64,000 nucleotides of DNA, taken from Perkinsus olseni (taxonomy: Eukaryota). Shown here piece after piece: positions 17,401 to 18,839 of the stretch (the first letter of the stretch is position 1; each line of letters starts with the position of its first letter). The notes beneath the pieces were generated by a model, which worked only from the letters and a program-made list of their open reading frames with translations, was not told where the DNA came from and made no database searches. A program made the position numbers and the translations under genes. The stretch covers positions 1 through 64,000 of the forward strand of contig JABANN010000081.1 in assembly GCA_013115125.1 (NCBI GenBank), in the 5' to 3' direction.

Positions 17401-18839
17401 CTCCAAGATCGTTTCAGTCTTGCGCGGTTTCATGACGAAACAAACAAAATCAACCATTCATAGCAACTTTTGCATAGCTCATGGCAAGACCCAGCGTGTG
17501 TGGAGACATGGCCATACCCAGCAGATAACGCTGCTCACTGAGCAGTGCTCAGTTGTGAGCCACTCGTTCACGGAGTCCGCAACCACGAATTCCAATTGGA
17601 CTTGATAGCATCCTATTCGACATCAGACCATGGTGTCGTCGTTCTCGGTGCCTGGAGGTATGAGTACGTCTTGCCAAGACGGTCTTGGTGCGGCACCTTG
17701 GTGCTGGGAAGTACAAGGCCGAGACAGCTACGCGCTTGTGCGTTGTATGGTGTCGTATTTGTATGTGTGGAAGCTAGCGCTTTGGATATTCGGTTTCTTG
17801 ATCTGCATCGTTGCTAAAGGTAGTAGCAGTACCGTTCTAGATTTGCGGTCATGCGAGTAGTATAGTGGTTATTCTCAGTTGGTCGCTAAGTGTTTCGCGA
17901 TTTAACCCACCCACTGCCTCCCGGAGCTGAGTGATCGGTGTGTCTAGCTGTCTCACACTGTGTCCCTGAACAGAGGGCTACTGGTTTGGTGACTGGTTCC
18001 AGAGCGCACCTGCCAGATGGAGAGTAACGCCTCCGTTAACCATCAGCATCTACCTCCGTCTAGCCCTTGCGCCGTACAAGGTTGCTGGTAGCACGTCGTG
18101 CTTGGCAGACTGCCGACGGCAGTTACCCAGGTAGCATTTCTGCCTTCTCCGCCCATGAGCTCTGTGGTTTTGAGTTTACACGAGTGCGTACCAGAGCGGG
18201 ATTGTAGTGTTACACAATAACTATTACCAATACTGTGCTACACAATTCGTGTTACAATGATTCACTATTGATGAGACGTATAGCATCGATCATATGCGTA
18301 CAGTGTACGTCGTACACTGTAGGCTTTCAAACCGTTCTCTTCACCAACTACAAGACGATTATATCGCATAGGGTATATAAAGGGTCTACATATCGAATAT
18401 ACCTACTATGAATGGTGGTTCTGAAGCACTGCTTCAGAACCTCATCAAATATTGTGCAAGAATCTGGTCCCGGAATTCTCACCCGGCAAGAGGTGCAGTA
18501 ACACCTTTTATTATCGAAGACTAGTGCCTGCGGGAGTAAACGAGAGGCTTATCTACCGGCCAATCTCTATGCCATAGAGGGTCATCTCTATGCCTGAAGC
18601 CCCATAGAGTCTATGGGGCTTCAGGCTGGGCGGATCTTCACGGGTGAACCATAGCACCCTCGTCGCGACCGAGCATGCCTTCTACCCACCGTTGGTCCCT
18701 CCACTAGCGACAAGTGAGTTAGCTCCCAACACAACAAGCGATACTCAACAGGAGCCGTATTAGTCCAAGTGACCTGACGGGGTAGCACTTGGGGCCGGGA
18801 AACTGATCCTCTGGTACTCGATCCATCCTGGATGCTCGG

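Follow-up and report, generated by a model that had tools for sequence, protein, structure and literature searches.

The 64,000-base stretch of the Perkinsus olseni genome analysed here (hereafter the window) carries many short insertion scars of one fixed shape, and our main conclusion, to which we give a probability of about 0.85, is that every scar marks a place which a hAT cut-and-paste transposon left and which was then repaired. A scar has the form T1-7 + rc(T) + T2-8, where T is an 8-base target, with a net gain of 14 bases. Ninety-one were observed in the window, 34 exact and 57 near-exact (34, 34 and 23 with 0, 1 and 2 mismatches), against fewer than one in dinucleotide shuffles (means of 0, 0.07 and 0.57 over 30 shuffles), an excess that is not due to chance. 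None of them lies within the five long reading frames (9,453 bases), where 13.4 would be expected (p about 5e-7), as anticipated for a +14 insertion that shifts the frame. Outside it, 103 exact and 77 one-mismatch scars were counted in 552,434 bases from 78 stretches, some of them selected for the transposases that they contain and with the 15%-GC contig C3350 left out, and a number-picked sample of 30 contig starts (138,714 bases) contained 23 and 13, respectively. Extrapolation to 39.9 Mb gives about 6,600-7,400 exact and 10,000-13,000 near-exact scars, figures that are rough because scars are patchy (from 0 to 10 exact per 10 kb). Two side observations concern composition: positions 1-10000 of the window have a lower GC content (41-47%) and are nearly scar-free (1 one-mismatch and 1 two-mismatch scar), unlike the remaining window, and C3350 is a 10-kb contig of 15% GC, probably mitochondrial, that was excluded from most counts.

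The shape obeys a strict length rule. With one base lost per side, a target length of 8 yielded 137 exact and 111 one-mismatch scars (79 stretches, 15%-GC contig dropped), lengths of 6, 7 and 9-11 yielded 0-1 exact scars each, and enrichment among lengths 5-11 was found at 8 only. The geometry is equally specific: in 616,434 bases, the product expected from joining 3' tails occurred 133 times, while neither the product of 5' tails (T + rc(T)2-7 + T) nor that of no base loss (T + rc(T) + T) occurred at all. Targets favour T at position 2 and A at position 7 (200 of 496 strand-symmetrised counts, 40%), a preference which may resemble that of Hermes and hobo. Pairs of scars within 30 bases of each other are as frequent as at random (6 vs 5.6), so that clustering in hotspots is unsupported. 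As for shorter footprints, inserts of 1-7 bases showed no clear excess after allowing for the background of 6-base repeats; a raw surplus of 2-4-base inserts over shuffles was mostly accounted for by surplus 6-base repeats at the same spacings. Our scans are blind to deletion-type footprints, and the uniformity described here therefore covers insertion-type products only.

Alongside the canonical product, which makes up 136 of 157 two-hairpin scars, we observed 21 long-armed double-hairpin variants (5 in the window; 0 in 3 shuffles). In these, an identical 8-mer marks two tips lying 13-52 bases apart, and the tip-to-tip offset of 8 bases is constant while the arm lengths are free to vary (8-25 bases, 8 being the minimum of the scan). 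Their joins comprise 9 with 1-6 bases of overlap, 4 that are flush and 8 with filler partly copied from nearby; the canonical form has, by construction, an overlap of 8 bases. These 21 variants preserve the hairpin intermediate, with both hairpins. Palindromes with a one-base loop are also abundant (50 vs 0-3 shuffled), and the one listed at 41055-41111 is probably a single opened hairpin. Four such palindromes (55857, 55937, 56006 and 56054) occupy positions 55850-56090. The paralogue of this stretch, at 57.46-57.56 kb, is about 200 bases shorter, which suggests that hairpin insertions expand spacers. Short-range template switching during replication (fold-back or inverted triplication), with no transposon involved, can likewise yield a forward-reverse-forward shape, and the nearby origin of some fillers would suit it. 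However, it offers no reason for a fixed length of 8 or for the loss of exactly one base per side, nor for a constant tip offset despite variable arms; the fixed scar length largely refutes it, and we find it barely credible.

Paralogous sites allow scarred and empty forms to be compared (Table 1). An earlier note on this DNA had claimed, from sites empty in one copy of a duplication and filled in the other, that the scars are insertions which arose independently after each duplication. Its leading example is correct: 13029-13036 reads CTGCTCAG and 17531-17552 reads CTGCTCA CTGAGCAG TGCTCAG, a clean 14-base gap in an alignment of 184 and 198 bases in which 38 of 183 aligned columns differ (21% divergence). 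At the age of the duplication about 2.3 mismatches would be expected within the scar at 17531 and there are none (chance about 0.09); this perfect symmetry, set against the divergence of the pair, weakly suggests that the scar is the younger of the two. A DNA search for a third copy of this stretch returned the query alone, which leaves 17531 without an informative outgroup. Coding hAT sequence in this pair, which would have given 17531 a polarity through its frame, found no support: tblastn matches (P0016 and C2929 frames) end at 17280 and the substitutions show no codon-position bias.

The second example, the F-box gene end at 62549 against 58731, was borne out as well, the empty 8-mer being one base off that of the scar. 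The reciprocal case described in the earlier note, empty at 58609 and scarred at 62411-62448, is real, but consists of two overlapping scars, +28 in all. Instead of two scars this pair has six: 58571, 58686, 58731 and 58780 lie in the 58-kb copy and the other two in the 62-kb copy. The frame of the F-box fragment shifts at 58782-58788. Reciprocity is likewise seen in another pair of the window, 55.6-56.3 kb against 57.3-57.75 kb. All 340 scars that had at most 2 mismatches and sufficient flank were aligned to the whole of the retrieved DNA, and 13 gave matches; 4 of these were the identical place retrieved twice and 9 were true paralogues. Among the 9, the paralogue is shorter by exactly 14 bases in 6 cases, by 11 in 2 and not at all in 1, and in 0 of 9 is the scar common to both copies. 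At 40566, where the scar lies inside a tandem array and the paralogue is not short, we probably have a chance match. Two arrays of 15-base units in inverted orientation are present at 39974-40796.

Table 1. Scars, empty partner sites, hairpin variants and neighbouring features, in window coordinates.
Position	Strand	Feature	Remarks
10173..10217		Long-armed double-hairpin variant	Arms 24 and 8
12973..13309		First copy of duplicated stretch, decayed	Three blocks match 17475-18367; no coding signal
13029..13036		Empty paralogous 8-mer, same as T of 17531	Paralogue comparison
16883..17280	-	Decayed hAT transposase C-terminus	PF05699 E 0.004, below cut-off; 41% identity to P0016
17374..17408		Long-armed double-hairpin variant	Arms 12 and 9; one 8-mer at both tips
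17475..18367		Second copy of duplicated stretch	Scars 17531, 17667, 18102 and 18296 inside
17531..17552		Focal scar, T = CTGCTCAG	0 mismatches; paralogue comparison and scar scan
18565..18616		Long-armed variant	Filler partly a left-flank copy
36457..36499		Long-armed double-hairpin variant	Arms 18 and 11
41055..41111		One-sided palindrome	28-bp arm, 1-base loop
48611..48632		Scar	2 mismatches; C3029 paralogue lacks 14 bases; 14-base gap likewise in X1 and X6 run contigs
55714..55735		Exact scar	Short paralogue near 57379 (16-base gap)
57607..57628		Exact scar	Short paralogue near 56135 (14 bases of gap); reciprocal to 55714
58571..58592		Scar	1 mismatch; net +11 vs 62.39-kb partner
58609..58616		Empty 8-mer	Opposite double scar 62411-62448
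58686..58707		Decayed scar	3 mismatches; empty partner 62518-62525
58731..58752		Scar in F-box 3' fragment copy	1 mismatch; three outgroup paralogues short
58744..58916	-	3' fragment copy of F-box gene	Residues 430-483
58780..58801		Scar at fragment frameshift	1 mismatch; empty partner 62587-62594; outgroups short
62411..62448		Two overlapping scars	62411-62432 (3 mismatches), 62427-62448 (1 mismatch); +28
62542..63996	-	Intact 484-codon frame, scar-free	Weak F-box-like match (E 0.0067, below Pfam cut-off)
62549..62556		Empty partner of 58731	Within last codons of intact F-box frame

An empty site facing a filled one is by itself no proof of direction, because a deletion between the T2-T7 direct repeats of a scar restores the 8-mer exactly. 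Polarity was nevertheless observed at three testable sites, and at all of them the long form is derived. Contig C2514 carries three F-box paralogues, all with a gap of 13-16 bases at 58731; over the 58780 site they follow the 62-kb copy and have no insert (at 62411-62448 and 58686 they are too diverged for polarity). On C2922, an exact scar interrupts a conserved hAT dimerisation motif, which the C3002 paralogue keeps unbroken and in frame. For the focal site, one could still argue that the long form is ancestral and that the short copy arose by exact T2-T7 deletion, in which case the scars would remain footprints but would predate the duplication. The logic of the repeats allows this, as does the missing third copy, and the decay of the 58/62-kb scars fits the age of their pair: the six scars carry 10 mismatches, where half of the 15.6% pair divergence predicts about 1.7 per scar, so that they are roughly as old as the duplication and not clearly younger. 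On the other hand, the intact symmetry of 17531 and the outgroups that are short at 58731 and 58780 speak against an ancestral long form, and 8 of the 9 paralogous sites would each have had to lose the scar exactly, with none keeping it in both copies; we consider it quite improbable. Overall, the claim that the scars are insertions, made independently in each copy of a duplication, is supported.

The earlier note had also proposed looking in other isolates for an occupied allele at these 8-mers. There was none among the indels listed for runs X1, X6, X7 and X8 (window 44001-64000), and no site was found empty, occupied and scarred across different isolates among these indels. Runs X1 and X6 are identical to the window, with no gaps, over 44001-59573 (15.5 kb), and hence no current activity is seen there; X7 and X8 are diverged from the window, with many gaps.

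The genome does encode candidate sources of the scars. It contains 11 matches to PF05699, a count of hAT elements that is a lower bound because the assembly collapses repeats and short non-autonomous elements fall outside the survey; no intact hAT element lies within the 64-kb window. One transposase, on contig C521, is an 819-codon open frame above the cut-off for both PF05699 and PF14291. It has the D-D-E triad and a C-terminal dimerisation domain, and its catalytic set is intact, the D, D, CxxH, W and ERF positions being invariant (D299, D373, C402/H405, W468 and E733 across 8 aligned sequences). A transposase encoded in the genome matches a Perkinsus olseni protein at 100% identity and a P. 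marinus one at 76%. At the junctions on C2937 and C289, paired with each other through the duplication that they share, the C521 element ends in inverted repeats of 16 bp and is flanked by a perfect duplication of 8 bp. Overlaps of 73 identical bases connect the ends of the element to four other contigs, which implies at least two near-identical copies. A second hAT, on C293, is 4,094 bases long, has an 8-bp duplication and carries scars inside. The three 8-mers flanking hAT copies lack the T2/A7 preference, a number too small to test (n=3). A scan of metagenome contigs with the transposase gave 266 pattern matches and 0 confirmed relatives.

The most direct link between hAT and the scars comes from the junctions on C1438 and C3003, which were matched by their flanks, with no spanning read. 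Here the C521 element stands between T1-7 + rc(T) and T7'..T1' + T2-8, the exact geometry of a scar, and the copy, which has an open transposase frame, is trimmed: 4 bases are missing from its left end and about 2-3 from its right end. A hAT copy is thus seen trapped in the middle of a pair of opened hairpin arms. The right arm on C3003 is overlapped by an older one-mismatch scar, offset by one base.

Two other sources have to be weighed against hAT excision as outlined above. The first is another transposon with 8-bp duplications, be it a MULE, Merlin or an unknown family. PF10551 (MULE) has 18 matches, of which several belong to open frames 600-935 codons long; Muta1, a MULE of Aedes aegypti, is likewise described as forming flank hairpins (PMC5499845), and Merlin-related frames are reported in P. 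marinus, with Merlin duplications of 8-9 bp (PMC8101967). The one element seen between hairpin arms is however a hAT, and Muta1, although it shares some 8-bp duplications with our scars, is a poor fit since, in the experiments described for it, its duplications are mixed (8 bp in 21 and 9 bp in 39), its excision is about 90% precise and it has little target preference (PMC5225508), whereas 9-base scars (0 exact vs 137 of 8 bases) and no-base-lost scars are absent here. Terminal repeats or duplications at 9 MULE stretches were absent among the matches listed. We deem this source very unlikely. The MULE matches on C204, C226, C433, C45 and C539 have open frames of 619-935 codons, and no terminal repeats were detected in the stretches examined.

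The second is that a hAT-type transposase leaves scars without a lasting element, through very fast cycles of insertion and excision or through aborted integrations, possibly as a mutator tolerated by the host. Thousands of scars face only 11 transposase loci, a very high ratio albeit one whose denominator is a lower bound with repeats collapsed in the assembly; the end-trimmed, trapped element shows its ends and the opened hairpins meeting in a single repair event, and scars overlap at 62411-62448 and on C3003. Yet the geometry requires a filled-in 8-bp duplication on both sides, as normal integration gives, and close pairs of scars do not exceed the random level. We therefore see little chance that the scars arose in this way, and hAT excision followed by repair remains our preferred reading. 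Points that weigh against the preferred reading are the few transposase loci beside thousands of scars, the window's lack of an intact element, and the missing clear excess of short P-nucleotide forms, where published Ac/Ds footprints are varied and frequently short (PMC5873905).

The route by which a scar would form, including the excision event itself, the enzymes used and the order of steps, is inferred from the shape of the scars and the literature on hAT excision. Insertion of a hAT element would duplicate the 8-base target T. On excision, the transposase would nick one base into each flank and seal both flanks as hairpins, of which the left should read T1..T7-T8'-T7'.. and the right T8'..T2'-T1-T2... 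A host nuclease would then open each hairpin at least 8 bases from its tip, leaving 3' tails that start with T8'..T1' on the left and T1..T8 on the right and could pair over all 8 bases; once the excess was trimmed and the ends ligated, T1-7 + rc(T) + T2-8 would result. Less often, the tails would be joined tip to tip with both long arms kept. As +14 shifts reading frames, scars would be purged from working genes and accumulate in spacers and dead genes, and their build-up would be independent in each copy of a duplication.

Several of these steps have precedents. According to PMC8151067, hAT transposases turn the flanks into hairpins, and the element that they free is either blunt-ended or carries a 5' overhang of one base. 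The footprints of Ac/Ds are described as palindromes centred on the complement of the element-bordering base and mostly joined by microhomology (PMC5873905), and yeast Pso2 has been implicated in hairpin opening (PMC5873905, PMC1978519). In the P. olseni genome we observed genes for Ku80, ligase IV and one SNM1A/Pso2-like nuclease (nearer SNM1A than Artemis), although one of the two ligase exons tried had no match. The presence of Ku80 and ligase IV means that the uniform product is not attributable to missing classical end joining, an explanation that we ruled out on these matches.

The type of footprint is already known; what sets the Perkinsus scars apart is that a single product, annealed along the entire duplication, dominates and that it is so numerous at natural sites. 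The chemistry of the Hermes hAT was reportedly described by Zhou et al. (2004), and Colot et al. (1998) are said to have found fungal hAT footprints with long inverted flank copies for Ascot-1 of Ascobolus immersus, under a title that stresses extensive diversity; in Perkinsus, a single product dominates instead. Closest are Ac/Ds in Candida albicans, Saccharomyces cerevisiae and Arabidopsis, with palindromic P-nucleotides, microhomology joins, arms of up to about 20 bases in yeast and the involvement of Pso2 (PMC5873905, PMC1978519). The Ac/Ds footprints reported there followed induced excision at one donor site and were varied, often short or deleted (e.g., 28 types in 128 Candida clones; PMC5873905), whereas Perkinsus shows one product (136/157) at natural sites genome-wide. 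Hermes and Tol2, as presented in PMC8151067, share the flank hairpin, the blunt or one-base 5' overhang release and the 8-bp duplication with what the Perkinsus sequences imply. They differ in that the Perkinsus transposase is a DUF4371/zinc-finger hAT with no phmmer match to solved structures. Our literature search, whose coverage excluded most subscription journals and supplements, returned no account of these scars in Perkinsus.

The window has further features of its own. Three intronless genes for secreted-looking FAD-linked oxidases (FAD_binding_4 + BBE) lie at 23210-25441, 27695-30472 and 31243-33573, with cysteine-rich N-terminal repeats and Thr-rich linkers; two of them have in common a 1.4-kb 3' block of 96% identity, which suggests recent conversion or duplication. 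A foldback-like repeat at 22239-22959 is made up of arrayed 21/24-base units; 200 bases downstream the unit recurs as an inverted block, and there is an assembly gap. No convincing 8-bp duplication flanks this repeat. Short high-copy repeats at 49417-49493, 59544-59774 and 61014-61436, with depths of 10-80x background in four runs and matches on other contigs, are possible short mobile elements. Finally, a family of short secreted-looking Thr/Pro-rich genes or remnants (53436-53770, 59955-60611, 48345-48436 and 38128-38188) has a conserved 3' motif in common.

Excision footprints are normally too varied to be recognised without an empty allele. The dominance of one self-identifying product makes it possible to count thousands of past jumps, to date them by internal mismatches and to map them from one assembly. 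A bolder proposal is that the organism has a dedicated hairpin-mending route, in which opening always takes place at least 8 bases from the tip and is followed by 3'-tail annealing, and that hAT has been a long-acting, near-continuous insert-and-leave mutator whose elements seldom stay; we regard this as unlikely, but if true, it would have added roughly 100-200 kb of palindromic DNA with a fixed shape, expanded spacers and killed duplicate genes. The scars themselves record in nature how hairpins are opened and ends joined in a lineage beside dinoflagellates and apicomplexans. They also represent a frameshifting force in the decay of duplicate genes and offer near-irreversible markers for strain typing in a shellfish parasite.
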